Positions 8,729 to 30,329 of a stretch of 56,684 bases of DNA are shown here, one piece after another. Both the position numbers and the translations under genes were made by a program. Position 1 is the first letter of the stretch; every line of letters starts with the position of its first letter. Below the pieces are notes generated by a model. That model had not been told where the DNA came from. It saw nothing but the letters and a program-made list of their open reading frames with translations, and ran no database searches. The DNA comes from an uncultured Rikenella sp. (GTDB lineage Bacteria > Bacteroidota > Bacteroidia > Bacteroidales > VadinHA17), in NCBI GenBank assembly GCA_964470815.1, contig CAYYEH010000010.1, positions 1 through 56,684 of the forward strand, written 5' to 3'.

Positions 8729-8771
8729 CAAATATCCTGCATAAATATCAGCAATCTGATGATAATAGTCA
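8729..8771 (-). promoter_or_regulatory. Putative aor promoter with Crp/Fnr-like box
   Basis: TGACTATTATCA (8771-8760), then 23 nt, then the -7-like GATATTTG (8736-8729). Confidence 0.55.
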
Positions 8772-8899
8772 ATATGCACATGAATGCGAGACGCCCCTCA
8801 TCATAGACTGCAATTTTCCCGGCGCGGCCGATTTCATCAGGACAGGTTCGGGTACGGGACTGGTTCTCTCCTTCGCGGGATCCCGGAATTGCCTGCATT

Positions 8900-8934
8900 G
8901 ACTGCCCGCTGCCGACTTCTGGCTTCTGACTTAT
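8900..8934 (-). repeat. Degenerate 7-nt-period array, single arm
   Basis: Minus strand: ATAAGTC AGAAGCC AGAAGTC GGCAGCG GGCAGTC. Confidence 0.55.
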
Positions 8935-8938
8935 TTTA

Positions 8939-8969
8939 TTTGCCAATCCCGATCAGCATAATAACTTTG
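8939..8969 (+). promoter_or_regulatory. Housekeeping promoter for thiS-ftsB
   Basis: TTTG (8939-42), 19-nt spacer, TAACTTTG (8962-69). The ATG follows 5 nt later. Confidence 0.75.
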
Positions 8970-8974
8970 CACGC

Positions 8975-9178
8975 ATGGAGATCACACTTAACAATGAACC
9001 CCTGGCGCTGGACGGTGAGAGTGTCACCGTTGAAAAACTGCTTGAGCTGAAGAGATATACCTTCAGGTTGAGGATAGTGAAGGTCAACGGGCGGCTCATT
9101 GACCGTGACAGCTATGCGCAGGAGGTGATCCGCGACGGAGACACGGTTCAGGTGATCTATCTGATGAGCGGAGGATGA
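8975..9178 (+). CDS. thiS: ThiS/MoaD-family sulfur carrier
   Basis: 67-aa beta-grasp protein, VKVNG...RDGDTV, ending in the C-terminal Gly-Gly. Confidence 0.85.
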   Translation: MEITLNNEPLALDGESVTVEKLLELKRYTFRLRIVKVNGRLIDRDSYAQEVIRDGDTVQVIYLMSGG

Positions 9179-9627
9179 CGGCAAACAGGGACAAAAACAA
9201 AGACAACAGCCGGAACGGCGATTTCTGGCAGCGGTTTACTCTTGCAGCCCTGCTTGAAAGGATGCCGTCATGGATGAAGAACAAGTATATCCTTACCATA
9301 CTTGTATTTCTTGTATGGATCATCCTGCTTGATCCCAACAATCTGATTTCGCGGGTACGCGAGATAAGGGCTCTCAAAAGGCTGGAGCAGGAGAAGGAGT
9401 ACTACATGGCCCGCATAGAAGAGGACCGCCGCAAGCTCAATGAGCTGAGGACAAGCAACGAGAACCTCGAGAAGTATGCGCGGGAACAGTATCGTATGAA
9501 GAGGCCTGATGAGGACCTGTTCATCATCGTCACCCCTGACCAGGAACGGAAGATCAGGCGTGAGCGCAAGGTGTCAAAAACACCGAAGCCCGCGGATAAG
9601 CGGGCCTCGGTGAAATCACGGGAATAG
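9175..9627 (+). CDS. Septum formation initiator (FtsB/DivIC family)
   Basis: KNKY..T..FLVWI..LD.N, coiled coil, LEKYAREQYRMKRPDED. Confidence 0.85.
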   Translation: MTANRDKNKDNSRNGDFWQRFTLAALLERMPSWMKNKYILTILVFLVWIILLDPNNLISRVREIRALKRLEQEKEYYMARIEEDRRKLNELRTSNENLEKYAREQYRMKRPDEDLFIIVTPDQERKIRRERKVSKTPKPADKRASVKSRE

Positions 9628-9630
9628 TGA

Positions 9631-10236
9631 TTATTTTTTTGCCTTTTCAGCGTTGTATTTGGCATTCAGCCCTGCAATCACATCGGCAGTCACATCAAGT
9701 GATGTGTCACTGTAAAGGATTGGGCCGGGGAACTGTTTTGCCAGGATGTACTGGAATCCGCGGTCAGCATTGAATTCTGCCAGGTACATGTTTATATACT
9801 CGAGCACCTGCCTCTGAGCCACGAGTGACTCCTCGTTGAGGTTATATGCCATCTCGTCACGCCTTGCCAGCAGTGTCTGCTGCTGCTGCTGAAGTGTCTG
9901 TTCCATCTCAGCGGCAGTGGCCCTGGTGACCAGTCCTTTCTGTACCTTGTTCTGGAAGTCCCTTACATCACGGTCAAATGCCTGCGACTTTGATGCAAGC
10001 TCCGCCTCTGAACTTTTTGTTTTCTCTTCAAGCTCTGTTGCCTTGTCTTTGGCCATATCAAAGTTGGCTATGACTGAATCGAGCTCAACATATGCTATGC
10101 CGCCGTGATTCCTGTTTGCCGCCGCCTCGTTTACGCCGGCCGGCTTGTTCTTTCCGCAGCCTGCCATCATGAGTGCTCCGGCAGCGATAAGAGTTGTAAC
10201 TATCAGGGTGTTCCTTGCAACTGAAATTCTATTCAT
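9631..10236 (-). CDS. OmpH/Skp-like chaperone (lipoprotein-type)
   Basis: Lipobox MAGC, IAYVELDS, helical tentacles, ..DVT..VI.GLN. Confidence 0.85.
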   Translation of the reverse strand: MNRISVARNTLIVTTLIAAGALMMAGCGKNKPAGVNEAAANRNHGGIAYVELDSVIANFDMAKDKATELEEKTKSSEAELASKSQAFDRDVRDFQNKVQKGLVTRATAAEMEQTLQQQQQTLLARRDEMAYNLNEESLVAQRQVLEYINMYLAEFNADRGFQYILAKQFPGPILYSDTSLDVTADVIAGLNAKYNAEKAKK

Positions 10237-10407
10237 CTTAAAGACTTGGGTTATGGTTCAACAAATTGTTGCACAAACATACATAAATTTTAAATACCAA
10301 AAAGGCAGAAGGAAGGTGAGGCAACTGGCAGGCGGAACCTGACCCTGAATGCGTGTCAGCGGATTTTGTGCGAGAGAGTGCTGGTACGGCAAAGGGTATG
10401 AAAGTGA

Positions 10408-11409
10408 TCAGAATTCGGGGCAGGGGATTGCGTGGATCTTTCCGCCGCGCTTCACCTGTGAAGAGGTAAAGGAATAAATCAGCGATATCTCATATGCGCC
10501 GCCTGAAGAGGTGATGAGGTTGGAGATGGTAAAATCATAGCTGAGGCCAATATTCAGCTGGTCAGTCTTGATTCCGAGCATCCCGATGATGGCATCGCCT
10601 GCCTGGGCTGACACCTCCTTCGATGTGGCAAAAGGTATTCCCCTGTACCAGACTCCGAAGACCAGGGGGTTCTTGTAGTAATAGAATCCGATGTCAGACT
10701 GGAAAAAATCACCCTGGAACATCACGTTGCCGGCAACAGACAGGACCTCCTCCAGTTTCTTCCTCAGCCTGCCGCGGCTGATGATCTGGAATCCACCGAA
10801 GAGATCGACCTTTACGGGAACTGAGTTATTGTCACCCCAGAAAGATGTTCTGGGCCTGAGGAGATGGTCAACGGTAAAGCCTCCCCATATCTTCTCGTTA
10901 TAAGCCAGCCCTGATACCGCAAAGTCTATGTCAGCAACGTTGTCGAATGGAGGGGGGGTGATTGGAGGAAGTGTTCCTCCGGTTGTAATCTGGCTGTTCC
11001 ATACCAGTTTGGTGAGATCGAGTCCGAGGTAGGTGAATTTAAAATTGACGCCGGGTCTGATATGCCATTCATCATTCAACTGTATATCATACGAATAGAG
11101 TAGCCCGAGATTAGTGGTGCTCAGGTCGCCTGAACCTGCCACATCATAGGTTGCAAGTATTCCGATGCCGGAGTTGAAGTTTGGTACTGCCTTGTCAAAT
11201 GAGACGCTGTAGGTATGGAATACTCCCGGAATTGAAGGCCACTGGTTTCTCCAGTTGAGTGAAAAACGGTAATCCTCCGTGGCTCCTGCAAAGGAAGGAG
11301 CCAGGTAAAGCTGGTTGGCATAGAACTGTGAGAACTGGGGGTCCTGGCCTTTCAGAACGAATGATACTAAAAGCAGCAGGCCTGTCAGATATTTAGCTTT
11401 TAAGGGCAA
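10408..11409 (-). CDS. PorP/SprF-family T9SS membrane protein
   Basis: QDPQFSQFY...L.PSFAG, RNQWP, GLSYDFTIS.L...GG.YEISL. Confidence 0.9.
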   Translation of the reverse strand: MPLKAKYLTGLLLLVSFVLKGQDPQFSQFYANQLYLAPSFAGATEDYRFSLNWRNQWPSIPGVFHTYSVSFDKAVPNFNSGIGILATYDVAGSGDLSTTNLGLLYSYDIQLNDEWHIRPGVNFKFTYLGLDLTKLVWNSQITTGGTLPPITPPPFDNVADIDFAVSGLAYNEKIWGGFTVDHLLRPRTSFWGDNNSVPVKVDLFGGFQIISRGRLRKKLEEVLSVAGNVMFQGDFFQSDIGFYYYKNPLVFGVWYRGIPFATSKEVSAQAGDAIIGMLGIKTDQLNIGLSYDFTISNLITSSGGAYEISLIYSFTSSQVKRGGKIHAIPCPEF

Positions 11410-11541
11410 TCCGGATAAATTTTAGTTACACAAAGTAGCTAATTATACGGCCCAAATTCAGGAAGGTTACATCAAATTATATCAACAATCTGAAGGTAAA
11501 CTGCCCGAGATATCAACAACAGACCCTTAGTATACTAATGA

Positions 11542-12843
11542 TCAATAATTTATAAGCGTCACATCACCTGCCATAATGAATGTCTGGCCATTCCTGTATG
11601 TTCCCCTGACCTTCCACACGTATACACCGGGAGCGCATAGTTCGCCCCTGTAGTATCCGTCCCATCCCAGTTCAATATCATTGCTCTCAAATACAAGCAT
11701 GCCAGCCTTACTGTATATTTTCAGGTTGTATGAGACTATTCCTGAGGCGACGGGGTGAAATACCTGGCTCTCCTCATCGGTGCGCTGGTTGTAATATCCT
11801 CCGGTAGGGCCTCCGCTGTTGGGGACGAAGGCATTGGGGAACCTGATATACAATCCCCTGTCGGTGAAGAGGTCGGTTACGGTCAGTGAGTCTGCACAGC
11901 CATCGGCCGACCAGGCCACGAGTTTAACATCGAAGACACCCATAGACCGGTATTTGTATGACGGGTCAGAGAGGGTGGAGAAGGTTCCGTCTCCGAAGTC
12001 CCACAGGTAATTCACCGCACCGGTGGAGAGGTTATCGAACTGAACCCTGTCACCCTGGTCCCATGAGTCGTCGCGGATCACCTCGAAGGCTGCCTTGGGC
12101 CTGTCCCATACCTCAATCAGTACTGATGCATCTGTTGTGCGGCCCCTGCTGTCGGTTGCTGTGATGGTCACACGATAAGTGCCGGGTATATCAAATATGT
12201 AATCCGGATTTCTGAGTGATGAAGTCCCGCCGTCCCCGAAATTCCAGTTTAACCTGATGCCGTCACCGGCGTTGGTGGTGAAGGTTACGTGCAGCGGGAT
12301 GCATCCGGATGTTACGGATGGTTCAACTGAGAGCGGGTATAAGGGTGAAGTGACGGCAGCTTCTCTTGCGTTGTCGATGGTGCTGACGGAGATTGTTTCC
12401 GAGGCGGATCTGCCGGAGGTGATTACTGATTCACGGCTGACGGTTTCACCGACAGGCGGTGTTGCATGCCCGGACACGCTTTCCGGTACCTGGTCCGGTT
12501 TATTTGCACCTTCTGCCGAATCTGCTTTTACCTGATCCTCCCTCTGGCCGCTGCCGGGGTCAGTGGTTACTGCTTCTGCTGGTACCGGCCGGTTATCCGG
12601 GATGGTTGTTCCGTCATCATTGCCGGTTACGGAGAACAGAATTACACCGGCTGCTGTCAGTCCGGCCATTGCAGCGGTCAGGTAATATATATTGAATCGT
12701 GAGATGTTGAAGCGGAAGAACTCTCTTCGCTCCAGGCGGCGCATAAAACGGCCTGTAAGGTCGCTTCCTGCAACCAGCTCATTCTCCTCCAGCTTGTCGC
12801 GGAAAAGATTTTCAAGACCGTTATCCCTTTCCTCTTCTGTCAT
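11542..12843 (-). CDS. PKD-domain protein with T9SS type-B C-terminal domain and anti-sigma-like N-terminus
   Basis: Two WNFGDG/WDFGDG PKD repeats. CTD: FPNAFVPN...IYSKAG.LVFES...GWDG...GVYVW. N-terminus LENLFRDKLEE followed by a TM helix. Confidence 0.85.
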   Translation of the reverse strand: MTEEERDNGLENLFRDKLEENELVAGSDLTGRFMRRLERREFFRFNISRFNIYYLTAAMAGLTAAGVILFSVTGNDDGTTIPDNRPVPAEAVTTDPGSGQREDQVKADSAEGANKPDQVPESVSGHATPPVGETVSRESVITSGRSASETISVSTIDNAREAAVTSPLYPLSVEPSVTSGCIPLHVTFTTNAGDGIRLNWNFGDGGTSSLRNPDYIFDIPGTYRVTITATDSRGRTTDASVLIEVWDRPKAAFEVIRDDSWDQGDRVQFDNLSTGAVNYLWDFGDGTFSTLSDPSYKYRSMGVFDVKLVAWSADGCADSLTVTDLFTDRGLYIRFPNAFVPNSGGPTGGYYNQRTDEESQVFHPVASGIVSYNLKIYSKAGMLVFESNDIELGWDGYYRGELCAPGVYVWKVRGTYRNGQTFIMAGDVTLINY

Positions 12844-12850
12844 CTTCTTT

Positions 12851-13405
12851 TCAAAAAAATTTCCCCCTGGCGCGCGCCAGGTCTCCGAGTTTTTTTCTGA
12901 GCGCTGCCCTGGCCCTGCTGTATTGTGATTTAGAAGTATTTACGTCAATCCCCAGCATCTCTGCTATTTCATGGTGTTTATACCCCTCGATGGTATAAAG
13001 GTTAAACACCATTCTGTATCCCGGTGAGAGGCCTGCAAGAACACGGTACAGATCCTCCGCGTTGCAGAAGTCCTCCTCAAAGCCGGCAGTTCCCGTCTCG
13101 GTGCTCACGTACTCATCGATGTCAACCTGGTGCTTGTGCTTAAGGTTTCTGTGCCAGTACGTTATGGCGGTGTTTACCGTGACCCTTCTCAACCATGCCC
13201 TGAAAGAACCGGTACCCTCATACTCCCCGAGATTGAAATAAATCTTCAGGAAAGCCTCCTGCAACATATCTTCAGCCTCAGGCCTGTCAGTGGCATATCT
13301 CATGCAGATGCCCAGAAGGTATCCGGAATACTGTTTCCACAGGGCCTGCTGCGCCTTTCTGTTGTGCCTGATACAGCCATCAATGATATGTTGTTCACTC
13401 ATCAT
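12851..13405 (-). CDS. ECF sigma-70 factor
   Basis: AEDMLQEAF, F.AWLRRVTVN, LSPGYRMVFNLY.IEGY.H.EIA..LGI...TSKSQYSRA. ATG 13405 is preferred because TTG 13429 overlaps the predicted -10 element. Confidence 0.92.
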   Translation of the reverse strand: MMSEQHIIDGCIRHNRKAQQALWKQYSGYLLGICMRYATDRPEAEDMLQEAFLKIYFNLGEYEGTGSFRAWLRRVTVNTAITYWHRNLKHKHQVDIDEYVSTETGTAGFEEDFCNAEDLYRVLAGLSPGYRMVFNLYTIEGYKHHEIAEMLGIDVNTSKSQYSRARAALRKKLGDLARARGKFF

Positions 13406-13424
13406 CAGCTGAGCACAGTGAGAA

Positions 13425-13451
13425 GACAATGGATAATAGCAAATGGTTGCA
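13425..13451 (-). promoter_or_regulatory. Putative ECF promoter (autoregulatory)
   Basis: Minus strand TGCAAC-N16-TTGTC, matching the sites at 51872 and 54215. Confidence 0.5.
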
Positions 13452-13509
13452 CGGGGCGGGATTTTTTTTCAAAATAAGGAAAAAAATGTATTAAATCATG
13501 GAATGCCTC

Positions 13510-13553
13510 TGATATAGGTCATTGAATCGGAGGGATGTTCAGGCTTACTTTTG
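13510..13553 (+). promoter_or_regulatory. Promoter with Crp/Fnr-like box for the fused oxidoreductase-proDH operon
   Basis: TGATATAGGTCA (13510-21), then 24 nt, then TACTTTTG (13546-53). Confidence 0.6.
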
Positions 13554-13584
13554 AGAACTGAACCAGAATGTGAAAGTGAATTAT

Positions 13585-16500
13585 ATGAGCAGAATTTTAC
13601 AGCATCCGATTCTTGACATCCCTCGTGCGGAAGAGACCGGCTTTATTTACAATGGAAGGTCTGTGAAGGGAATGAAGGGATTCACCATAGCGGCTGCTTT
13701 GCACCAGGCAGGGTTTCCGGTGCACACGCACAGTCTTGACAACCGCAATCGCAGCCTGGAATGCGGCATTGGCAAGTGCGGAGCTTGCGAGATGCTTGTT
13801 GACGGAGTGGTGAGGCGTATCTGCATCACTCCCGTTGATAGTGTCAGGGAGGTGACCGAGATACCGGCAGGATACCAGCCGGCTACCGCCCCAAAGGCCA
13901 ACGGTGCAGCCAGGAAAGTCTTTCGCACCACGGTGGCCATCGCCGGTGCAGGACCGGCAGGACTTGCAGCAAGGGAAGTACTGAACAAACATGGTATCCC
14001 CAACCTTGTGATCGACAGCAACGACCACATCGGAGGGCAGTTTCTCATGCAGACTCACCAGTTCTTCTTTTTCGAGAAGGAACAGAAGTTTGGAGGCATG
14101 AGAGGTTTTGACATTGCGAAAACACTGGCGGGGGAGTCACAGGATGGGATCATGCTCAATTCAACCATCTGGGACATACTTGAGGGTCAGCGGATAGCCG
14201 CGAAGAACATGCGCACCGGCGAGATCTTCTACGTTGATGCACAGTACCTGATCGTCGCCACGGGAGCGGTGCCCTTCATGCCAGCCTTCGGCAACGACGA
14301 TCTGCCCGGAGTATATACTGCAGCAGTGGTGCAGAAGATGATGAACCAGGAATTGACTCTCCTTGGTAAAAACATACTGACAGTGGGTGCCGGAAATATC
14401 GGTTACCTCACCTCCTACCAGCTGATGCAGGCCGGAGCGAAGGTGAAGGCGATCATCGAGGCAATGCCTTACGAGGGAGGGTTCCCCGTACAGGCCAACA
14501 GAGTAAGGAGACTGGGAATTCCCGTCATCCTTTCGCATATGCTTGTCAGGGCCATCCCGAACAGTACCAATGACGGTATCTGCGGGGCGGTGATAGCCGA
14601 GTGTAGCGACTTCACCCCGGTGCCGGGAACAGAAAAGATAATCGAAGGGATTGATGCCATTAACATATGCACAGGTTTGATTCCTGACAACCAGCTTCTC
14701 ATCAAGGGCCGTGAAGTATTCGCGACCAGGGTATACGCCGCCGGTGACGCCATGCGGATCGGCGAGGGGACTACGGCAGTACTTCGCGGCAAGCAGGCCG
14801 CCATGGAGATAATCCAGGAGATGGGAGTGCGCAGCAACTACAGTGAATACCTCTCACTCTCAAAGGAATACATTGATTCACAGCAGCATCCGGCAAGGAT
14901 AATTGAGAACCCGTTTATGCCGGACGAGGCCAGGATGAATGCCAGGCCGTTCGTGATAATTGACTGTCTCTACAGCTTCGCCTGCAACCCATGCCAGTTT
15001 GCATGCCCTCACGGGGCGATAACAAAGGCCTCGCCTGACACCGTTCCGTCAATCGACTTTGAGAAATGCACCGGATGCCTCAGGTGCGTTTACCAGTGCC
15101 CGGGACTGGCCATTTTTGGTTATAACCTCCCAAAGAATCAGCTCTTCCTGCCGGTGGAATATTTTGTAGATGAGGGTGCAGAGGTTTACCTCGTTGACAA
15201 TGACGGAAGGAAGGTCGGTGAAGGGGTGATAGAGAAGGTGTTGATGAAACCGAACAAAACAAATGTTGCAAGGGTAAGGGCAACCAGCCCGAAGGGAAAG
15301 GATATCGTTGCAGCACGTGGTTTCATCATGAAGGAAAGTTACCCTGTGGCGGTGACATTTACCCCTGCAGCGGAGACTGAATCAAAGGAATACATCTGTC
15401 ACTGTGAGGATGTGAAGCTTGAGGAAATAATGGCCATCATCGGTGACAGGAAGTACATCTCGGTTGATGAGATCAAGCACACCACCCGGCTGGGTATGGG
15501 TCCGTGTCGGGGCAAACGTTGCATAAGGAGGCTCTCGATGCTGCTCAGGCCCATGGGCATTGAAATTGTTGGTGACGCCACCCCCAGGGCCCCGCTGTCG
15601 AACCAGATCACCATGGGTGAGCTCTTACCACAGAAGACCCCTGAGATCATTATAACTCCCGGTACCAGGAAGAAGGTGAAGACGGGTGCTCTGGTGGCAG
15701 GCGGAGGAATCACCGGCAGCGCACTGCTCCGTTACCTTGCCGCGGCGGGCATGAATCCTGTGCTCATCAATCATGACCGCGGATCATCATGGCGAAACAT
15801 AGCAGGCGGCAGACCCAACTTCAGTGTTCCGGAGCTCTCTGAAATAGCAAGACAGAACCATGAGATATTCAAAGAGCTGCAGAAAATCGGCGAAACAAAC
15901 TACAGGGAAATAAAGTATGTGACCTTCGCCCATGACGATGCAATGATGAGCCAGCTTGAAGCCTCACTGGCATGGTCAGACGGAGAGATCGTGCTCCCGG
16001 AAGACTATGCTGAAAAGATTGCCCCGGGTATAAATCCTGAACTAAAAAAGAAATATAAGGCAGCACTGGTGACAAATGACTGCTGGCAGGCCACACCCGG
16101 AAAGGTCATCGACCTCATCAGACACCTCGGTTTACTGGCCGGAGGAATCGTGGAAGAAGACAGCACCGTCACGGCGGTGAGCCGCAACGGAAGTGAATAC
16201 AGCATTATAGTCCGGAACCACATGGGTGAATACGTGGAGTATGAGACCCCGGTGTTCGTCAATGCAATGGGGGCACACGGCGAGGATTTTGCACGCAGCC
16301 TCGGAATATATACTGGAACCTACGGAGTGCGTCACCAGGCGTTCATCACACGGCGACTACCCATGATGGGACCCGGCAACACACCGTTGCCGATGCTGAT
16401 AGACCGCCGTCACTACAAGGGATTTGTCGCAGTATACGGCCAGCAGCTTGGTGAGACAGGACAGATTATCGGCTGTGCCTCGCCGGCTTTTGAACCCGCA

Positions 16501-16809
16501 GAGACAGGACGAAACCTGAAAATAAACAGCAAGGATTTCATGGAGATAGTGTCAGAGGTATTCACCTCATGGCTGCCCGGGTTATCATCTGCAGGATTCC
16601 AGTCGCTCTGGAGCGGTTACTACACCGAGCCGAGGATGTACATCGATCCGGAACATGGTCTCTTCCTCGGACTTCGCGGACAGGGTTACATGCTGGGTCA
16701 GTACCTGGCGAAATTGTATGTTGACAAGCTGACGGGACGTGAAGTTCCTGCATATTTCAGCAGGTTGTCACTGAAGGGTGACGGGTTACCGGAGAAGGCA
16801 TTCAAATAG
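13585..16809 (+). CDS. Fused multi-domain Fe-S flavoprotein (sarcosine oxidase / dye-linked proline dehydrogenase-like)
   Basis: 2Fe-2S (CGIGKCGAC...C), GAGPAG FAD domain, two 4Fe-4S motifs (CNPCQFACP, CTGCLRCVYQCP), BFD-like (ICHCEDV...GPCRGKRC) and DAO-type (GGGITG) domains. Confidence 0.85.
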   Translation: MSRILQHPILDIPRAEETGFIYNGRSVKGMKGFTIAAALHQAGFPVHTHSLDNRNRSLECGIGKCGACEMLVDGVVRRICITPVDSVREVTEIPAGYQPATAPKANGAARKVFRTTVAIAGAGPAGLAAREVLNKHGIPNLVIDSNDHIGGQFLMQTHQFFFFEKEQKFGGMRGFDIAKTLAGESQDGIMLNSTIWDILEGQRIAAKNMRTGEIFYVDAQYLIVATGAVPFMPAFGNDDLPGVYTAAVVQKMMNQELTLLGKNILTVGAGNIGYLTSYQLMQAGAKVKAIIEAMPYEGGFPVQANRVRRLGIPVILSHMLVRAIPNSTNDGICGAVIAECSDFTPVPGTEKIIEGIDAINICTGLIPDNQLLIKGREVFATRVYAAGDAMRIGEGTTAVLRGKQAAMEIIQEMGVRSNYSEYLSLSKEYIDSQQHPARIIENPFMPDEARMNARPFVIIDCLYSFACNPCQFACPHGAITKASPDTVPSIDFEKCTGCLRCVYQCPGLAIFGYNLPKNQLFLPVEYFVDEGAEVYLVDNDGRKVGEGVIEKVLMKPNKTNVARVRATSPKGKDIVAARGFIMKESYPVAVTFTPAAETESKEYICHCEDVKLEEIMAIIGDRKYISVDEIKHTTRLGMGPCRGKRCIRRLSMLLRPMGIEIVGDATPRAPLSNQITMGELLPQKTPEIIITPGTRKKVKTGALVAGGGITGSALLRYLAAAGMNPVLINHDRGSSWRNIAGGRPNFSVPELSEIARQNHEIFKELQKIGETNYREIKYVTFAHDDAMMSQLEASLAWSDGEIVLPEDYAEKIAPGINPELKKKYKAALVTNDCWQATPGKVIDLIRHLGLLAGGIVEEDSTVTAVSRNGSEYSIIVRNHMGEYVEYETPVFVNAMGAHGEDFARSLGIYTGTYGVRHQAFITRRLPMMGPGNTPLPMLIDRRHYKGFVAVYGQQLGETGQIIGCASPAFEPAETGRNLKINSKDFMEIVSEVFTSWLPGLSSAGFQSLWSGYYTEPRMYIDPEHGLFLGLRGQGYMLGQYLAKLYVDKLTGREVPAYFSRLSLKGDGLPEKAFK

Positions 16810-16853
16810 TTTTTTCATATCTTTGAACGCCGTTATTAAAATTATAACCACAG

Positions 16854-17765
16854 ATGTTCAACAAGTTCATTGCCTCCATCCTTCCGTACTTTCCGAAGAA
16901 ATTCATCTGGATCTTTTCGCGTGCATATATCTCCGGTGTGACAATGGGTGATGCCATGCGAGTATCAAAGGAACTTAATTCCCAGGGAATAAAGGTCACC
17001 CTTGACGTGCTGGGTGAGTTCATAAAATCACTTGATGAGGCTGAGGCCAACAAGCAGGAGTATCTTGAGCTGATTGAAGAGACCCAGAAGCAGGGTATTG
17101 ACGGCAACTATTCACTTAAGCCTACCAGCTTTGGCCTCCTGATTGATAAGGAGGTTTGCTACAGGCTGATGCGAGAGATAGTGGTAAAGGCAGCGTCATA
17201 CAATAATTTCTGCAGGATAGACATGGAGGACTCACCGTGTACCGACATGGAGATTGAACTTTACAGAAGACTTCATGCCGAGTTCCCGAAGAATGTCGGG
17301 CTGGTTGTACAGGCATATCTCAGGAGGACCCTCGGTGATCTTGAGAACATGCTTGACATGAATACCCCAGAGATACCCGCCAGCTATCGTCTCTGCAAGG
17401 GTATCTATATTGAGCCGGCCGAGATAGCATTCAAGAAATATGAGGAGATCAACCAGCACTTCCTGGAGGATCTCGAGTTCATGTTCCGCAATAAGATTTA
17501 TGTCGGCATTGCCACCCATGACAAGCCGCTGATTGAAGGGGCTTACGAACTGATCAGGAGATACAATGTCCCGAAGAACATGTACGAATTCCAGATGCTT
17601 TACGGCGTAACACCGAAGCTCCGTAAGAGCATCGTTGACGCCGGTCATGTGATGAGGGTCTACGTGCCCTTCGGGGAAAAGTGGTTTGGTTATTCAACCA
17701 GGCGTCTTAAGGAGAATCCCAAAATCGCCAGCCATATCATTAAGGCGCTGTTTGTAAAGGGCTGA
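16854..17765 (+). CDS. Monofunctional proline dehydrogenase
   Basis: LDVLGE, SLKPT, RIDMED, QAYLRR, RLCKGIY, IATHD, EFQMLYG, VYVPFG..WFGY.TRRLKE. Confidence 0.95.
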   Translation: MFNKFIASILPYFPKKFIWIFSRAYISGVTMGDAMRVSKELNSQGIKVTLDVLGEFIKSLDEAEANKQEYLELIEETQKQGIDGNYSLKPTSFGLLIDKEVCYRLMREIVVKAASYNNFCRIDMEDSPCTDMEIELYRRLHAEFPKNVGLVVQAYLRRTLGDLENMLDMNTPEIPASYRLCKGIYIEPAEIAFKKYEEINQHFLEDLEFMFRNKIYVGIATHDKPLIEGAYELIRRYNVPKNMYEFQMLYGVTPKLRKSIVDAGHVMRVYVPFGEKWFGYSTRRLKENPKIASHIIKALFVKG

Positions 17766-17774
17766 TTATCAAGT

Positions 17775-18586: not shown

Positions 18587-18590
18587 CGGC

Positions 18591-19217: not shown

Positions 19218-19225
19218 CATAACAG

Positions 19226-20713: not shown

Positions 20714-20796
20714 GATTATTGGGTCAATCGGAGATCAGTCTCTAGCTTCAGGTATCATGCCTTTATGATATCAACCCGGAGGTCTCCTTTTTGTTT

Positions 20797-21597: not shown

Positions 21598-21679
21598 CTG
21601 CTGTATCAGTTGGAGAGATAAATATATTATTTTTGAACAAAATAGTCCTTCAAAAGGTCAACCATTTATAATTACGGAA

Positions 21680-22090: not shown

Positions 22091-22092
22091 CC

Positions 22093-22728
22093 ATGGAAAA
22101 ACTCAATGACGGCAGCGGAAAGCTGTCAGACGGCTACAACAAGATCGAGAAATGGAATCCTGAAGTCATAGAGGAGATGTCGGGATATTACTACAAGATA
22201 CTCAAGCTACTTGGGGAGGATCCTGACAGGGAGGGACTGGCAAAGACTCCGGAGAGGGTTGCCAAGGCACTCAGTTTCCTGACGCGAGGATACCAGTCAA
22301 ACCCGGAGGAGATACTACGGAGTGCAATGTTCAGGGAGGAGTACAGGCAGATGGTGATAGTGAAGGATATCGACATCTATTCAATGTGCGAGCATCATAT
22401 GCTGCCTTTTCACGGCAAGGCTCATGTGGCATACATCCCTGACGGTTATATCACCGGGCTGAGCAAGATAGCCAGGGTGGTGGAGACCTATTCAGCGAGG
22501 CTTCAGGTACAGGAGAGACTTACCACCCAGATCCGCAACTGTATACAGGAGAACCTGAAGCCGCTGGGGGTGGCGGTGGTCATCGAGGCACAGCACATGT
22601 GCATGCAGATCAGGGGTGTACAGAAACAGAACTCTGTCACCACCACCTCAGCTTTCACCGGCTGTTTTCTCTCAAACCTGAACACGCGTGAGGAGTTTAT
22701 GCATCTTATAGCCAGCAGGCTTCACTGA
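22093..22728 (+). CDS. folE: GTP cyclohydrolase I
   Basis: [40 protein letters not shown]. Confidence 0.97.
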
Positions 22729-22761
22729 TAACTTTTTATTGACACCACATCTGATTTAACT

Positions 22762-23649: not shown

Positions 23650-23757
23650 AGGCGCTGAACTGCCCCGGGTGACAGGGCCAGATATCAACAGATATCCATG
23701 CTGATGAATGAGAGACCGGCAGTCATAAGCTGATTGAGGGGATCCCTCCCCTGCAGG

Positions 23758-26700
23758 TCATTCTCCCTCTGATATCACTGCCATCCCTATCTTGCCATCC
23801 ATCCTGATAATCAGGGGCCTGGAGAACCTTACATGCCTGAACCAGGTCCCTTTGCCTGTCTCCGGCATCTTTCGCAGTTTATCCCACATGATCACCCCTT
23901 CAGCGGTGGCTTCGTTCACGGCAAGGTAGCCTATTCTCATGGAAGTGACATTATGGAAGAAATGAGAGCCCTGTGAAGCATCGATATGGAAATTCGGCAT
24001 GCTCACCTCCACTATTATCCTTGCATTGGATATCTGGGGCCACTCTACGGGTATTCCCAGGAAACGGTCCTTGGTACCCCATCGTCCTGGACCGATGAGG
24101 ACATATTTTTTTCCCTCGGCCAGCATCTGCCTGTTGATGGCATCGATCTCTGCCGCCATTTCGTTGGTCTTCAGATTGTCAAACGTCTCAGGCTCAACAT
24201 AGATTATATCGGTTATCCCTTCTACCAGCCCGTTGCCCATGCTCTTTCTTGAGACAAGAAGTGTTTCTTCCGTATAGACACTCTCAGGGTCGATAGAATA
24301 ACCGGCGCCGCTTCCAACCAGGGGTTTTATCTGCAACAGGTAAAAGGTGGCCTTTCCCTCTTCGTCCTTTGTAAGGTCAACGGCATATTCGATCTCCACG
24401 GGTGCCCCGAAGGCTTCCCTTACCACTTCCAGAACCGTTTTAAGGGTTCGTGCAAGGGGCATGTAGTCATACTTCAGGATATTTGCGAAGTTGACCACTC
24501 TCGGGCCGGGCACCCCTAATCCGGGCACAAGAGTATCATTGTCAATACTGTATACTGAAACGGAATGGGTCAGAGTGCCGTCTCTCTCTGCCCTGGAGAT
24601 ATCAAGTTTCACCAGGCCGGCATTCTCCCCGAGCAGAAGGTCAACCTCGCTGCGTGCCAGGTTTACTGCATAAAATTCTGTCTGTGAATAGCGCATCAGG
24701 TCCCTGATGGAGACTATATCGAGGGCGGGGTATGCAGGTGAGAACCTGAAGGCTCTCTCCCCGTCAAGCACATACTGTCCCAGTCCCACGGCAGCCACGG
24801 CAAAGCCATCGTGAGTGGTCATGCTGGCCACCGGGTAGAAATTGAACGATTGAGCCGTTCCGCTTATATGAGGATAAAAGATGTCACCGTACCTGTTGCC
24901 CACTACAGCCTGTATAACCACCGCCATCTTCTCCTGTTCGATCTTGTAGTTTACTGCCTCAAAATAGATACGGGAGTTGTCAGAGTAAATTGAGGAGAAA
25001 ACGAGCTTGATGGCCCCGATGAGCTGCATAAGCCTCACTTCAGGGTCAGGATGGTTGTTTGGCAGGAGGTATGTGCCGAAGATGCCCGAGAAGGGCTGGC
25101 TCAGTGAGTCCTCGAAGAGGCTGGATGACCTCACTGCCAGAGGTCTGGAATTAAGCCTGATGAATACCCTGAGTTTGTGTTCCAGGTCATCGCTGAGAGT
25201 GCCGGCCAGGAAGTGCTTCTGCAGGACGGTAAAATCCTTTTCCCGGCTGACCACTTCCCACAGCCGGTTCGTATCCATGAACTGGTCGAACTCATCGGTA
25301 CCGATGATGGCGGTGACCGGTGTCCGGATATTGATGCCGGGGAGCAGGCGTCCCAGCTCGAAGCTGTAGATAAGTGTGCTTATGAATGCCAGGCCACGTC
25401 CTTTTCCTCCTAGGGAGCCGCCGGCAAAACTAACCACGTTTGATTCGTCTATCATTACAGACTCGTCGAAGTTCACCACCTTGCCCTTGTTCATCTCCCG
25501 GCGCCGTTTGCGTATGATATCGAGGAGAAACTCCCTCATCTCCCTGAGGCTGTTGAAGTCAGACACCTTGACCGGGTTGATCATCTTGGCTATCTTCACC
25601 TCTCCCCTGGCCATCAGCCAGAGTGAGAAGTGGTTTTTCATCGCATGATAAACGAGTGAGTCTTCGGGAACAGTCTTGAGGAATGCTTCAAACTCTTTCA
25701 TCGATTTGGCCACGGCTATCTGTCGCCCCTTGGTGTCACGGTAGACAAAATGGCCGAAGCCGAGGTAATATGTAATGAATGACTTGAGATCCTGCAGAAG
25801 TGTTTCGGAGTTCTTGTTGATGAAGCTGGCCTTGAGTTCCGCTGCCCACCGGGCGTTCTCGGGGTCAGATGACTGCAGTACGGTAGGCAGGTTTGGCTGG
25901 TCCTCCCGCAGGAGCCTGATCATTTCAAAGCCTGCCATTTTGTAAAGCTCGCCATTCCTGGGGAAACGCATGTCAGAGATGACCCCCAGCAGGCGGTCCT
26001 TATACTTGGTGTAGATTGCCATTGCCTCCTCCCAGTTTGTAGCCAGGAGTATCTTGGGTCTGGCCCTCAGCTTGAGCACCTTGTAAAGTTCATCCGCAGA
26101 TACGTCTTCAATGAGTATGCGTGTCTGCTCCAGCACCAGGCTGTAAAGCATCGGCACATAGCTGGAATAGTAATCAGGTGCATCCTCTATTATCAGTATC
26201 ACCCTTGTCAGCCCCTTCTCCGTGTCATTGCCCACATTCACCTTGTCCTCAAGCAGCTTTGCCATGGCGAAGAAAACGCGTGACTCACCGGTCCATACGA
26301 AGAGGTTGTCATACGGAACGCCCTGCTTCCTCTGATCCTGTACGAAGGGGATATCTCCCGGATTATTAAGCAGGAGGTATGTAGGGATGTAAGGATATTT
26401 CTCCTTCAACTTGCGGCAGAGGCTCATAGGGTTGACCTTGTCAACGCCTACCATGATAATGATCATATCATAATGTCTCGCCTCGAGGCGTGAGAAGGCC
26501 TCATCCTCACCTGAGACCCCGGTAATGCGGGGGATAGTAGTAAGACTCATCTGGTAGTATTCTCCGAGCATATAGTCGGAGAAACGCCCCTCTCCCTCGA
26601 TGGAATAGGCATCATAAAGACTGGCTACCAGCAGTATCTCTCTGACCATGAAAGGCATAAGGTCATGAAAGACATCCCTCTCCGCATTATGCCTGTCAAG

Positions 26701-27204
26701 GAACTGCTGCAGCAGTTTTCTGATCGACTGGTTTTCAGGGTCATTCAGCTCAGTCAGCCCGGTATTCCTGTCTGATTCAGGTGGAGAGTCGGCTGCCAGG
26801 CTGTTTATATATCCGGTGATAAGGCAGGCAAACCTTGAGAGGAGCTCTCGTTCTTCCTTCTGGAACGGGCCATCATCCTCCGGGAGGAAGGGGAGTATGT
26901 AGCATACTTCCACCATCCCTTCACCTCCCAGGGCTCTGAATCCCCGTGATATCTTCCACCCTGTTTCGGTGAACCCCGGTGTTTCATAGCTCCTGCCGCG
27001 ATAGATGATGCGGGCAACGGTATAACCAGGGTACTGGAACGCCTCCGGCAATCCCAGAACAAGATGCATGAGTGTCTCATCCACGGGTTTGCGTTCCTTC
27101 AGAATCTGGGTGGCGCGGTTAATACATGCCAGTTCCTTGAGGCGTTCCTGCTGGTTATGAACATCACGCGTAAAGCCGGTACCGGGGTCAGGACAATCAG
27201 TCAT
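23758..27204 (-). CDS. PEP/pyruvate-binding (PPDK_N ATP-grasp) domain protein with GAF-like and receiver-like N-terminal domains
   Basis: ERLKELACI...FQYP; ILIIED and VISDMRFP receiver parts; GGKGRGL, VRSSSLFED, YLLQIKP and GSHFFHN. Start uncertain (27204 or 27297). Confidence 0.8.
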   Translation of the reverse strand: MTDCPDPGTGFTRDVHNQQERLKELACINRATQILKERKPVDETLMHLVLGLPEAFQYPGYTVARIIYRGRSYETPGFTETGWKISRGFRALGGEGMVEVCYILPFLPEDDGPFQKEERELLSRFACLITGYINSLAADSPPESDRNTGLTELNDPENQSIRKLLQQFLDRHNAERDVFHDLMPFMVREILLVASLYDAYSIEGEGRFSDYMLGEYYQMSLTTIPRITGVSGEDEAFSRLEARHYDMIIIMVGVDKVNPMSLCRKLKEKYPYIPTYLLLNNPGDIPFVQDQRKQGVPYDNLFVWTGESRVFFAMAKLLEDKVNVGNDTEKGLTRVILIIEDAPDYYSSYVPMLYSLVLEQTRILIEDVSADELYKVLKLRARPKILLATNWEEAMAIYTKYKDRLLGVISDMRFPRNGELYKMAGFEMIRLLREDQPNLPTVLQSSDPENARWAAELKASFINKNSETLLQDLKSFITYYLGFGHFVYRDTKGRQIAVAKSMKEFEAFLKTVPEDSLVYHAMKNHFSLWLMARGEVKIAKMINPVKVSDFNSLREMREFLLDIIRKRRREMNKGKVVNFDESVMIDESNVVSFAGGSLGGKGRGLAFISTLIYSFELGRLLPGINIRTPVTAIIGTDEFDQFMDTNRLWEVVSREKDFTVLQKHFLAGTLSDDLEHKLRVFIRLNSRPLAVRSSSLFEDSLSQPFSGIFGTYLLPNNHPDPEVRLMQLIGAIKLVFSSIYSDNSRIYFEAVNYKIEQEKMAVVIQAVVGNRYGDIFYPHISGTAQSFNFYPVASMTTHDGFAVAAVGLGQYVLDGERAFRFSPAYPALDIVSIRDLMRYSQTEFYAVNLARSEVDLLLGENAGLVKLDISRAERDGTLTHSVSVYSIDNDTLVPGLGVPGPRVVNFANILKYDYMPLARTLKTVLEVVREAFGAPVEIEYAVDLTKDEEGKATFYLLQIKPLVGSGAGYSIDPESVYTEETLLVSRKSMGNGLVEGITDIIYVEPETFDNLKTNEMAAEIDAINRQMLAEGKKYVLIGPGRWGTKDRFLGIPVEWPQISNARIIVEVSMPNFHIDASQGSHFFHNVTSMRIGYLAVNEATAEGVIMWDKLRKMPETGKGTWFRHVRFSRPLIIRMDGKIGMAVISEGE

Positions 27205-27337
27205 CTGGGCTTGAGGTAAAGATGATGCCAAAATACACAAAAAGAGAATAGAATGTAACAGCCGGCCCCCCCTGAGAGGTGACCGGCTGATTATCATGGA
27301 CGGGCTGCTTCCGGCAGCCTCCGCGTTATTGCTGCAA

Positions 27338-28360
27338 TTACTTCACCTCCCAGGTTGAGCCGCTATTCAGGAGGTCATCAACACTCCTTATCTGTGACTT
27401 CGCCTGTACCCTCTGATGCTGCTCAATCATTGCGGCGTCATAGGTCTGGGCATTGATTGCCCTGATAACGCCCAGTGCTATGGGGTATTCGGGAAGAGAC
27501 ATTCCGGCGAGCCGGTAGTGGATCCCCGGGTTGGGTTCGTGAGCATCATGGGTCAGTATATCATCTTCCGTGATGCCGTCTTCACCGATCTTAACCACCC
27601 TCAGTTTGAGGTCCTTGAGGATTATGCCCTTGTCGCGGTTCTTGCCGAAGATCATCTTCTGGCCATGGTGCAGGACAAGGGTATTGTCATCACGGGTCTC
27701 CTTGCTGGTAAATGCATCAAAGGCGCCGTCATTGAAGATGACGCAGTTCTGGATTACCTCAACGACGGCAGTGCCATGAAATTTTGCTGCCTCCTTGTAT
27801 ACCTCATTGGAGAGCTGCAGGTTATAGTCAACCGTGCGTGCAAAAAAGCGTCCGTTGGCTCCGATAGTAAGCTCACCTATCTTGAAAGGTTCCTCAATGG
27901 TACCGTAGGGTGATGTTTTGGTTGCAAGCCCTTTCTTGGAGGTTGGAGAATACTGTCCCTTGGTCAGGCCGTAAATTTCATTGTTGAAGAGTATTATCTT
28001 GATGTCAATATTACGTCTGATGGCGTGGATATAGTGGTTTCCGCCAATTGCCAGCGCGTCACCGTCGCCGGTCATCTCCCAGACCATCAGGTCAGGGTTG
28101 GCTATTTTGATCCCGGTGGCAATTGCTGCGGCCCTGCCGTGGATTCCGTGGAAACCGTAGGTATTCATATAGTAAGGGAGCCTTGAGGAGCATCCGATAC
28201 CTGATACGAACACATATTTTTCTCTTGGTATGTCAAGTTCTGCAAGTGTCTTCTGAAGTGAAGCCAGGATGCCATGGTCACCGCAACCCGGGCACCATCT
28301 CACTTCCTGGTCGCTCTTGAAGTCCTTAGCTACGTAGTGGTTTGTTATCGTTTCAGCCAT
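27338..28360 (-). CDS. korB: 2-oxoacid:ferredoxin oxidoreductase beta subunit
   Basis: WCPGCGD, SGIGCSSR, HGIHGRA, GDGD, NNEIYGLTKGQYSPT. Confidence 0.95.
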   Translation of the reverse strand: MAETITNHYVAKDFKSDQEVRWCPGCGDHGILASLQKTLAELDIPREKYVFVSGIGCSSRLPYYMNTYGFHGIHGRAAAIATGIKIANPDLMVWEMTGDGDALAIGGNHYIHAIRRNIDIKIILFNNEIYGLTKGQYSPTSKKGLATKTSPYGTIEEPFKIGELTIGANGRFFARTVDYNLQLSNEVYKEAAKFHGTAVVEVIQNCVIFNDGAFDAFTSKETRDDNTLVLHHGQKMIFGKNRDKGIILKDLKLRVVKIGEDGITEDDILTHDAHEPNPGIHYRLAGMSLPEYPIALGVIRAINAQTYDAAMIEQHQRVQAKSQIRSVDDLLNSGSTWEVK

Positions 28361-30206
28361 TTTTCTTACCCTTAAGCAGTTTAACACAATGATCCTTAAT
28401 CTCTTTGACGGTGAATGGAAGCCCCTGAATCTTGTTGTACTGGTAGTACGTAAACTTCTGGTGCTTCATCCTGAGGTAGTTTGCAAACTGGCCGTTATTC
28501 AGCTCGCATACCAGCAGCCTGTCAAATCCGGCAAACACTTTAGCGGTGTTTTTCGGGAGTGGCCTGATATAGTTGAAGACCACGGCTGACACACTGTATC
28601 CCTCCTGCTGCAGTTCAGTGACTGCAGTGGTGATTTGCCCGTAGGTACTCCCCCATCCTATCAGGAGCATGTCACCTGTTTTCTTTCCGAAGATCTTGAG
28701 GTCAGGTACATTTTTCACGATCCGTTCCACCTTTTCCTCCCGCATCCTGACCATGTACTCATGGTTTTCAGGTGTGTATGAAACGCTTCCCTTTATTGTT
28801 TTCTCAAGTCCACCGACACGGTGTTCCAGCCCTGGGGTGCCGGGGATGGCCCATTTGCGTACGAGTGTTTCAGGATCTCTCTCATACGCAAGATATTCCT
28901 TGTCGGATTTCACTGCATACGGAACTGAAATGTCAGGCAGATCCTTCATTGCTGGGATCTTCCATGGCTCAGAACCGTTTGCCAGGTAACTGTCAGTCAG
29001 GAGTAACACGGGTGTCATGTGCTCAACGGCAATTTTTGCTGCTTCAAAAGCGAACCTGAAGCAGTCAGAAGGGGTGCCGGCTGCAATTACCGGGACGGGG
29101 CTCTCTCCGTTTCGGCCGTAGAGGGCCTGCCACAGGTCAGCCTGTTCGGTCTTGGTCGGCAGCCCTGTTGAGGGACCGCCTCTCTGGACATCGACAACCA
29201 CCAGGGGCAGCTCTGTCATTACGGCCAGGTTCAGTGCTTCCGACTTGAGTGCAAGTCCAGGTCCTGATGTGGTTGTCACAGCCATTCTCCCGGTGAAGCT
29301 GGCACCGATGGCGGTGCAGATACCGGCTATTTCATCCTCTGCCTGGAGACTCTTTACCCCCATATCCTTTCTAAGCGCAAGCTCCTCGAGTATACCGGTG
29401 GCCGGTGTGATGGGATATGAACCGATGAAGAGCTTAAGCCCGGCCTTCTCGGCTGCGGCAAGCACACCCCATGCAGTGGCCTGGTTGCCGTTGATGTTAC
29501 GATAGGTACCCTTTGCGATCGGGGCAGGGCCTACCCTGTAGGAAGGGGTAAGAGCTTCAATGGTCTCGCCGTAATAGTAACCTGCCCTGAGCACTTTGCT
29601 GTTGGCTTCGGCCACCTGTGGCTTCTTGCCGAACTTGTCATCAATGAAATCCTCGGTGTACTTCAGCTGGCTGTCAAAAAGCCAGTAAACCATCCCGAGT
29701 GCAAACATATTCTTCGTTCTCAGGACAGTTTTGGGATCGAGGTCCATGTCCTTCAACGCCTCCTTCACAAGTGTGGTTATAGGGGCAGCAATGAGGTTCA
29801 TCGAGTCAAGCTTGTCCTCGGCAAACGGGTCAGCCTTGTAGCCAGCCCTCTGTATCTGTTTCTCAGTGAAGTTGTCAGAGTCATAAATGATGGTCGAACC
29901 TTTCCTGAGCCACCTGGCATTTGCACGAACAGCTGCAGGATTCATTGCCACAAGAATGTCGGTGAAATCACCCGGAGTGTTAATCAGCTTATGACCTATG
30001 TGTACCTGGAAACCGGAGACACCACCTACGGTGCCCTGCGGAGCCCTTATCTCTGCAGGATAATCCGGAAAGGTGGATATGTCATGTCCGAACAGGGCTG
30101 ACGTGTTGGAGAAGAGGGTGCCTGTAAGCTGCATCCCGTCTCCTGAGTCGCCTGAGAACCTGATCACCACTGCATCCTTCTCAATGACCTTTGATCTTTT
30201 TCCCAT
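28353..30206 (-). CDS. korA: 2-oxoacid:ferredoxin oxidoreductase alpha subunit
   Basis: GDSGDGMQL, YPAEIR, YPITPA, QAEDEIA, TSGPG, QRGGPSTGLPT. Confidence 0.95.
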   Translation of the reverse strand: MGKRSKVIEKDAVVIRFSGDSGDGMQLTGTLFSNTSALFGHDISTFPDYPAEIRAPQGTVGGVSGFQVHIGHKLINTPGDFTDILVAMNPAAVRANARWLRKGSTIIYDSDNFTEKQIQRAGYKADPFAEDKLDSMNLIAAPITTLVKEALKDMDLDPKTVLRTKNMFALGMVYWLFDSQLKYTEDFIDDKFGKKPQVAEANSKVLRAGYYYGETIEALTPSYRVGPAPIAKGTYRNINGNQATAWGVLAAAEKAGLKLFIGSYPITPATGILEELALRKDMGVKSLQAEDEIAGICTAIGASFTGRMAVTTTSGPGLALKSEALNLAVMTELPLVVVDVQRGGPSTGLPTKTEQADLWQALYGRNGESPVPVIAAGTPSDCFRFAFEAAKIAVEHMTPVLLLTDSYLANGSEPWKIPAMKDLPDISVPYAVKSDKEYLAYERDPETLVRKWAIPGTPGLEHRVGGLEKTIKGSVSYTPENHEYMVRMREEKVERIVKNVPDLKIFGKKTGDMLLIGWGSTYGQITTAVTELQQEGYSVSAVVFNYIRPLPKNTAKVFAGFDRLLVCELNNGQFANYLRMKHQKFTYYQYNKIQGLPFTVKEIKDHCVKLLKGKKNG

Positions 30207-30271
30207 GATGATTGAAACGTATTTGATTTTAAGTGAAAACCTGTTTTAAGAAGTAACCTTAAATGATGAAG

Positions 30272-30329
30272 CTAAGTTCACCATAAAACTGATATAACTG
30301 TATGATTTTGGTCATGTTTGACATGACCA
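30272..30329 (-). promoter_or_regulatory. korAB promoter region with Crp/Fnr-like box and overlapping perfect palindrome
   Basis: TGACCAAAATCA (30314-30303), then 23 nt, then the -7-like GAACTTAG (30279-72). TGGTCATGT-ttg-ACATGACCA spans 30309-30329. Confidence 0.55.

Follow-up and report, generated by a model that had tools for sequence, protein, structure and literature searches.

A conserved box of FNR-type geometry at a fixed distance from the -7 element of anaerobic catabolic genes in an uncultured Bacteroidales genus

At class II promoters, FNR of Escherichia coli and FNR-type regulators (Anr/Dnr, FixK, and FnrL) use TTGAT-N4-ATCAA boxes that are centred at -41.5. FNR/Anr/FixK-type class II regulation is the closest known system to the elements described in this article—three boxes within a 56,684-nt stretch of DNA from an uncultured Rikenella sp. 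(contig CAYYEH010000010.1, herein called the window). They lie upstream of the genes for an aldehyde:ferredoxin oxidoreductase (AOR), a fused dehydrogenase, and a 2-oxoacid:ferredoxin oxidoreductase (KOR, encoded by korAB). Operators of other families include the Fur box, a 19-bp GATAATGATAATCATTATC with a TGA-N9-TCA core, and the Rex box, TTGTGAA-N4-TTCACAA, with TGAA-N4-TTCA half-sites.

BT4338 (Cur/MalR) of Bacteroides thetaiotaomicron is the sole characterised global Crp-like regulator of Bacteroides. It binds the operator wwwTATGTTnTAnAACATAwww and governs carbohydrate utilisation as well as fusA2 under carbon limitation (PMC3878776, PMC6989115). HcpR of Porphyromonas gingivalis and other anaerobes is a nitric oxide (NO)-responsive, haem-based Crp/Fnr protein with a small regulon (hcp) (PMC1274295, PMC12750200). 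Our literature search retrieved no paper on an FNR-type regulon of AOR, KOR, or indolepyruvate ferredoxin oxidoreductase (IOR) genes in Bacteroidales.

Position and conservation of the boxes

The window is contig C10 of a metagenome-assembled genome (MAG) of 3.13 Mb and 215 contigs (genome label G000), in which a crude codon-usage caller found 2,539 genes (91% coding). Genes on other contigs are given as contig:position. The boxes, their -7-type octamers, and the genes downstream are as follows.

8771-8760 (-): FNR-type box 1, AOR promoter, TGACTATTATCA; extended form ATTGACTATTATCATC
8736-8729 (-): -7-type octamer of the AOR promoter, GATATTTG, 23 nt downstream of box 1
6542-8695 (-): aor, aldehyde:ferredoxin oxidoreductase (Pfam AFOR_N, AFOR_C)
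13510-13521 (+): FNR-type box 2, fused-dehydrogenase promoter, TGATATAGGTCA
13546-13553 (+): perfect -7 box of the fused-dehydrogenase promoter, TACTTTTG, 24 nt downstream of box 2
13585-16809 (+): fused dehydrogenase (Pfam Fer2_4+Pyr_redox_2+Fer4+BFD+DAO, i.e., 2Fe-2S / Pyr_redox_2 / 4Fe-4S / BFD / DAO)
16854-17765 (+): proline dehydrogenase following the fused dehydrogenase (Pfam Pro_dh)
30314-30303 (-): FNR-type box 3, korAB promoter, TGACCAAAATCA; extended form ACATGACCAAAATCAT
30279-30272 (-): weak -7-type octamer of the korA promoter, GAACTTAG, 23 nt downstream of box 3
28353-30206 (-): korA (Pfam POR, POR_N, PFOR_II)
27338-28360/28387 (-): korB (Pfam TPP_enzyme_C)

Sequences, coordinates, and gaps of 23, 24, and 23 nt agree with those of the first-pass annotation of this DNA, and its gene names agree with Pfam. 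All three boxes, and at least nine further sites in the genome, fit the dyad geometry TGA-N6-TCA. The spacing between the 4-nt half-sites is strictly N4, and the spacers vary (CCAAAA, TATAGG, and CTATTA). If TAnnTTTG spans -12 to -5, a gap of 22-24 nt to the -7 box places the box centre at -41.5. The start of the fused dehydrogenase is the ATG at 13585, as seen from aligned N termini of relatives; from its domains we take the protein to resemble fused HcnABC or opine-oxidase-type subunits.

The pattern as such is not rare. TGAY-N4-RTCA matches the genome 381 times, 49 of them intergenic, which corresponds to 0.168 per kb or about one per 6,000 intergenic nt. The rate of 1 in 16,000 assumed at first was thus too optimistic: about 0.9 intergenic matches are expected in the window, and three or more would occur with P ~0.07. 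The earlier argument that three position-matched boxes are unlikely to be accidental is hence borderline for the window alone and gains its force from the genome-wide test of position. Among pairs of a box and a perfect TAnnTTTG in upstream regions, 6/25 have a gap of 22-24 nt, as opposed to 0/48 for five control patterns with other spacings and orientations (Fisher p = 0.001). A hypothesis-free scan, in which every palindromic 3-mer and 4-mer dyad with a spacer between 2 and 8 was counted in front of 440 perfect -7 boxes, recovers the same peak, with TGA-N6-TCA at gap 22-24 ranking first among the dyads that are not A/T-only (8/18 occurrences). It is this link to the position of the -7 box, and not the count in the window, that makes the boxes convincing, and the observation is confirmed. 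A Fur or Rex box does not fit the N4 spacing between 4-nt half-sites or the lack of a peak for TGAR-N4-YTCA among the controls.

The lack of a -33 TTTG in the three promoters, already pointed out in the first pass, is true yet uninformative. Only 11% of the promoters of the genome have TTTG and 23% have TTG, so we rejected the missing element as a sign of activator dependence.

Conservation was followed in about 24 genomes of the same genus, which are uncultured MAGs from sludge, digesters, and sediments labelled at NCBI as "Bacteroidales bacterium UBA4070...", "Rikenella sp.", or "Rikenellaceae". The strict box is found at the aligned position as follows.

AOR promoter: 23/23 same-genus genomes
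korA promoter: 23/23 same-genus genomes
Fused-dehydrogenase promoter: 11/11 same-genus genomes that have the gene
Promoter of an oxaloacetate-decarboxylase-alpha/pyruvate-carboxylase-B-like (oadA-like) gene: 18/18 same-genus genomes

The three boxes have thus stood the comparison of orthologous promoters by which the first-pass annotation proposed to judge them. Over the four promoters, the majority fraction is 0.90-0.98 in the half-sites, 0.49-0.81 in the 25 nt upstream, and 0.55-0.81 in the 22 nt between box and -7 element; for box 1 of AOR, the half-sites reach 0.97 compared with 0.74 in the upstream flank. Box-to-(-7) spacing is constant within the genus, with no indels between the two. 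The box of the fused dehydrogenase keeps its half-sites while its spacer changes among genomes (AGG, ACG, ACA, and CTG), and the spacer of the oadA-like promoter is likewise variable with half-sites held. Constant half-sites around a variable spacer are a pattern typical of a protein-binding dyad. The octamers are conserved as well: in the AOR promoter, TTTG is kept at a fixed distance throughout the genus, with a perfect match to TAnnTTTG in several relatives, and in the korA promoter, GAACTT(A/C/T)(G/A) occurs at a fixed distance with a majority fraction of 0.90. In four same-genus genomes, the upstream gene stops directly at the korA box, which marks the box as the upstream edge of the promoter. 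Taken together, these comparisons support the view that the boxes represent a single cis-element, with Crp/Fnr (FNR-type) geometry and a fixed, class-II-like distance to the -7 element.

Chance matches, or a sigma-factor or promoter-intrinsic element in place of a transcription-factor operator, would account for a pattern that was found post hoc, that is not enriched in intergenic regions relative to the same half-sites at other spacings, and that reaches only P ~0.07 in the window; the AT-rich spacers of some sites also look like generic promoter DNA. This explanation is very improbable. Both half-sites are conserved with varying spacers and flanks in 11-23 genomes per promoter, the controls lack a positional peak, and the presence of the box co-varies with a helix residue of the candidate regulator (see below). 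Fur and Rex boxes, by their generally known consensus sequences, differ in geometry or half-sites. The explanation is largely refuted by the conservation across genomes.

Outside the genus, the AOR gene of a genome from another family (G037) is preceded by CATATTGACAATTATCAT, and the box is absent from the korA and dehydrogenase promoters of the other families compared. A further genome of another family (G039, locus L056) has a different repeated element at the orthologous promoter: TTGTATCATTGAATAA occurs there in four to five tandem copies, directly before the AOR gene.

Other conserved blocks were seen in the three promoters of the window. The AOR promoter contains two that are shared across the genus and that other factors might bind: a CCG.C..GCAAT-like block at 8782-8794, 11-23 nt upstream of box 1, and GGATATTTAT at 8741-8750, between box 1 and the -7 octamer. 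Just upstream of box 2, the conserved block TTTTTTTTCAAAATAAGGAAAAAAATGTATTAAATCATG (13467-13505) is probably part of the promoter of a divergent gene for an ECF-type (extracytoplasmic function) sigma factor (12851-13405, -). Box 3 is overlapped by a perfect 9-3-9 palindrome, TGGTCATGT-CAA-ACATGACCA, at 30309-30329. We rejected it as a second operator of korA: the left arm shows no conservation among the 22 other same-genus korA promoters, and it is deleted in the four genomes in which the upstream gene abuts the box. Judged from this alignment, the palindrome is probably private to this species.

A candidate regulator of the Crp/Fnr family

The genome encodes seven HTH_Crp_2 (Crp/Fnr) genes, three of them with E...R recognition helices. 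Sequence comparison points to a 231-aa Crp/Fnr protein (C37:15466-16161, herein C37) as the most likely regulator. Upstream of its gene lies a perfect FNR consensus, TTGATATAGATCAA, together with a second box, TGATATATGTCA. The first of these is conserved in 18/18 same-genus orthologues as TTGAY-N4-RTCAA with a variable spacer, about 90 nt upstream. Among named MAG loci, 40/40 C37 orthologues are preceded by a strict box, including those with as little as 51% protein identity, where it lies at -58. Two side observations concern this control region. It is shared with the divergent gene of a multihaem cytochrome c (C37:14186-15331), and it contains (C37:15300-15465) an invariant block, CATTGATATTTCAATCACAATGGATTGATAAGTA, with TTGAT-like half-sites at N6 spacing.

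Within the protein, C10, C13, C16, and C111 are invariant in 17 orthologues of the genus, as is the helix MAKESVVRI. When the protein is aligned with E. coli FNR by BLASTP, C10 and C13 fall opposite C20 and C23, C111 opposite C122, and the E and R of the helix opposite E209 and R213, which serves as a lead only.

Homologues with 35-54% identity, a sister group with a K-D helix included, occur in 70/401 sampled Bacteroidales genomes and 48/237 genera. A strict box lies within 200 nt upstream of 16/19 homologues with a K-E-x-x-x-R helix and of 1/9 with K-D-x-x-x-R (p = 0.0004), with a chance expectation of about 1/28 among the order-level homologues. Of the evidence that connects the protein with the motif, this co-variation of helix subfamily and box is the strongest available.

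Among the paralogues, C5:65716 is the most FNR-like, scoring 98.6 bits against the NCBIfam Fnr model (NF008365, cut-off 228) compared with 40.0 bits for C37. No conserved box lies upstream of its gene, and for this it was set aside as the less probable regulator. The helix of the C54 paralogue resembles that of the P. gingivalis Crp/Fnr structure 2gau; it is the HcpR-like paralogue of this genome. In genome G020, a stop or frameshift interrupts the regulator orthologue (L125, G020:C8:238490-239183), and the AOR, korA, and oadA boxes of this genome are preserved; the cause may be faulty assembly or recent pseudogene formation.

Regulon, transcripts, and mode of action

The box and -7 architecture recurs upstream of the oadA-like gene (C4:62814), iorA (C2:17546-19165, -), pckA (C19), an aconitase-family gene, a gene of a TonB-dependent receptor, and two unknown genes (C39 and C35). 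For pckA, about 15/21 genomes have TGA-N6-TCA with a gap of 24 to TAACTTTG, itself highly conserved, and for iorA, TGA-N6-TCA is kept in about 14/24. Weaker candidate members are gcvT, hutH, kbl, an M3 peptidase gene, and a 2Fe-2S ferredoxin gene. A position weight matrix (PWM) was built from 12 sites, and its lower-scoring annotated hits are candidates only. Its intergenic candidates include genes for a methylmalonyl-CoA-type carboxyltransferase, pta with a divergent FAD/Fe-S oxidase, a GlpD-like protein, nqrA, a NuoF-like protein, a multihaem cytochrome c, and argG. Further central-metabolism genes probably belong to the regulon.

The first-pass annotation proposed a single redox or anaerobiosis activator regulon of Fe-S oxidoreductases in Bacteroidales, a reading that is supported in part. 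What stands of it is a shared cis-element of FNR geometry at a fixed distance and a regulon that is wider than proposed; the restriction to Fe-S enzymes fell with pckA and the oadA-like gene, and the regulon is documented for one uncultured genus and scattered relatives, not for Bacteroidales at large.

A PhsA-like gene (C27) is a doubtful member: the box seen in G000 is not conserved there, and a neighbouring block that is conserved, (T/A)AT(C/G)ATAWWWRTCAT, lies about 29 nt from the -7-like box. The leader of iorA (C2:19166-19300) contains about 100 nt that are nearly invariant in the genus, GTAAAGTAAACAATAATGACATTT...TTTAACTTAACTTTAAT...CATCTTTAC; such conservation suggests a second promoter or a control element at the RNA level. 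In pckA (C19:25552), the first ATG of the open reading frame follows directly on the conserved -7 box, and the alignment identifies the real start as a conserved ATG 27 nt further downstream.

RNA data were available as contigs assembled from metatranscriptomes of anaerobic digesters, anoxic habitats in which AOR and korA are well transcribed. Across four runs, the contigs of AOR stop at 8715, 8708, 8707, and 8658, and 8716-9028 is uncovered, which points to a start of transcription between the -7 octamer and the ATG. In three metatranscriptomes, they stop 9-17 nt short of the predicted +1 (~8724) and never cover the box; the ends at 8707-8715 fit the start implied by a box at -41.5. The fused dehydrogenase is barely covered. 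Of the korA contigs, those of two runs stop at 30209 and those of a third at 30240; in two further runs, they extend across the entire region, with a depth that is low or DNA-like. A poorly conserved -7-like octamer, TACGTTTC (30221-30214), which is kept only in the closest relatives, would put the +1 of korA at exactly 30209. This end, seen in two independent metatranscriptomes, lies 3 nt before the ATG and 5 nt after the octamer and could reflect a proximal promoter with a nearly leaderless mRNA or a break in the assembly.

The sequences establish the element, its fixed position, its conservation, and its association with the C37 subfamily; activation, the binding protein, and the signal are inferred. 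From these data, we consider it fairly probable that an FNR-type dimer bound near -41.5 activates anaerobic catabolic genes, with C37 as the most likely regulator. The boxes would be operators (wTGAY-N4-RTCAw) for a dimeric Crp/Fnr-family factor of FNR-type specificity. With the box end 22-24 nt upstream of the Bacteroidota -7 element (TAnnTTTG) and the centre near -41.5, the class II position, the bound dimer would contact RNA polymerase and compensate for weak core elements, and the Bacteroidota primary sigma holoenzyme would transcribe the genes. The putative genus-wide regulon of anaerobic catabolism would comprise AOR, the 2-oxoglutarate and indolepyruvate ferredoxin oxidoreductases, the fused dehydrogenase with proline dehydrogenase, phosphoenolpyruvate (PEP) carboxykinase, and the oadA-like enzyme. 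By analogy with FNR, Cys10, Cys13, Cys16, and Cys111 would hold a cofactor labile to O2, NO, or redox changes, and we infer from these cysteines that one of the three would be the signal. O2-sensitive ferredoxin-linked enzymes would herein be made only under reducing conditions, and the box in the promoter of the regulator itself would provide autoregulation. Activation is favoured because of the narrow register of 22-24 nt, the weak but conserved -7 boxes of AOR and korA, and expression in anoxic habitats.

Several results weigh against this proposal, beginning with the missing intergenic enrichment of the bare pattern described above. Concerning the protein, none of the Crp/Fnr paralogues of the genome reaches the NCBIfam Fnr cut-off. 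The third N-terminal Cys is missing in many of the order-level homologues of C37, which makes an Fe-S cluster in this protein uncertain. Furthermore, four same-genus genomes keep the boxes without a C37 orthologue, and G037 keeps its AOR box without a close C37 homologue; the four MAGs are 82-94% complete, and about three absences are expected from incompleteness alone. Concerning the promoters, the korA contigs do not end at the predicted +1 (~30267) of the GAACTTAG promoter, so its use is putative. Upstream of the C37 gene, the two boxes are 30 and 52 nt away from the -7 box and not 22-24. An mmdA-like gene (C139) has its invariant box in a repressor-like position, about 19 nt downstream from a -7 box that is perfect and conserved, and a site at -41.5 overlaps the -33 region, from which it could equally repress.

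The genomes that have the box and lack C37 would be explained if a real Crp/Fnr operator were bound by another paralogue (e.g., C5:65716, C41:13880, or C5:34554). Seven paralogues exist, three with E...R helices, and C5:65716 has the top score against the Fnr model. Alternatively, the factor could answer a metabolic signal such as carbon/energy status or amino-acid supply (cf. Cur/BT4338) and not O2 or redox, as the regulon is as catabolic as it is redox-related (pckA and the oadA-like gene, with peptidases, gcvT, hutH, and kbl as candidates). We regard this alternative as unlikely. Conserved upstream boxes are found only at the C37 gene, and the box tracks the K-E helix subfamily; C5:65716 has no such box, C54 has the 2gau-like helix, and the Cur motif differs in its half-sites, for which it was also rejected as an explanation of the boxes.

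The promoter positions bear on a second alternative, in which the same pair of protein and box mainly represses, with the dimer sitting on the -33 region or downstream of the start and derepression following the loss of DNA binding. In other promoters of the genome, the -33 TTG peaks at a gap of 18-20, a place that the box overlaps, and both the mmdA-like box and the off-register boxes of the regulator gene would suit a repressor. Occlusion, however, would tolerate variable positions, whereas the tight spacing of 22-24 nt in at least nine promoters fits activation that depends on the face of the helix. Several of the target -7 boxes are weak yet conserved (GAACTTAG and GATATTTG), and transcription of AOR and korA is good under the anoxic conditions of digesters, in which the holo form of an FNR-like protein would occupy its site. 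Repression as the main mode is therefore quite improbable, and activation from -41.5 is the mode that we prefer; by analogy with E. coli FNR, dual action as activator and repressor is likely. At the mmdA-like gene itself (C139:3964-4030), AATGACTTTTGTCATG is invariant in 21/21 genomes with its spacer included, next to the perfect -7 box TAGGTTTG. This box before a methylmalonyl-CoA-type carboxyltransferase gene is possibly a repressor-like site or a hairpin in the 5' untranslated region.

Transcriptional control in non-model Bacteroidales is almost unknown. Anaerobic digesters and sludge harbour these protein fermenters in abundance. What is gained is a testable operator-regulator pair and a core regulon of the main ferredoxin-reducing enzymes and the PEP/oxaloacetate node, which offers a frame for reading shifts in digester metatranscriptomes after O2 or redox upsets and suggests a way in which strict anaerobes gate the synthesis of O2-labile enzymes. 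More tentatively, a Bacteroidales-wide, Cys-bearing FNR-like subfamily (N-terminal CxxC, central Cys, and K-E-x-x-x-R helix) might act as an autoregulated master switch for ferredoxin-linked catabolism of amino acids and 2-oxoacids (AOR, KOR, IOR, and proline dehydrogenase) together with the PEP/oxaloacetate node, on only in the reduced cell. If true, this subfamily would represent an "FNR for obligate anaerobes", with the protection of O2-labile metabolism as its role instead of the switch between respiratory modes—a possibility to which we give somewhat less than even weight.

Comparison with known Crp/Fnr systems

HcpR shares with the system described here that it is a Crp/Fnr regulator of anaerobic Bacteroidota activating from a palindrome upstream of the promoter, where activation in the present case is deduced from position and conservation. 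It differs in being haem-based and in its small regulon, and the HcpR-like paralogue of this genome is C54. BT4338 is similar in that it, too, is a global regulator of the Crp/Fnr family from Bacteroidales; its operator is a palindrome located upstream of -7 boxes, its autoregulation is putative, and its targets are catabolic. However, its half-sites are TGTT/AACA as opposed to TGAY/RTCA, and no Cys cluster is reported for BT4338.

The agreement with FNR is closer. Both systems have the dyad geometry 4-N4-4 (TGA-N6-TCA) with TGAT/TGAC half-sites and a fixed distance from the core promoter, here a predicted equivalent of -41.5, and the candidate regulator gene has one perfect TTGATATAGATCAA upstream. 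C37 has E and R at the positions of E209 and R213, an N-terminal CxxC, and a Cys aligned with C122. Autoregulation, putative here, and a target set of anaerobic energy-metabolism genes are further common traits. The differences begin with the host, an uncultured and presumably strictly anaerobic Bacteroidales bacterium with promoters of the -33/-7 type. The outermost T/A of the box is weakly conserved, with A as common as T. The cysteines of C37 are spaced C-x2-C-x2-C compared with C-x2-C-x5-C in FNR, its helix K-E-S-V-V-R has V at the position of FNR S212, and it scores far below the NCBIfam Fnr cut-off. The targets are ferredoxin-dependent oxidoreductases and fermentative carboxylase/decarboxylase genes and not respiratory reductases. 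An FNR-type class II site is a textbook mechanism, and the present case hence contributes to annotation and ecology, not to concept. Its regulon is genuine but rather ordinary, and belongs to a familiar type for which no description from this group exists so far.

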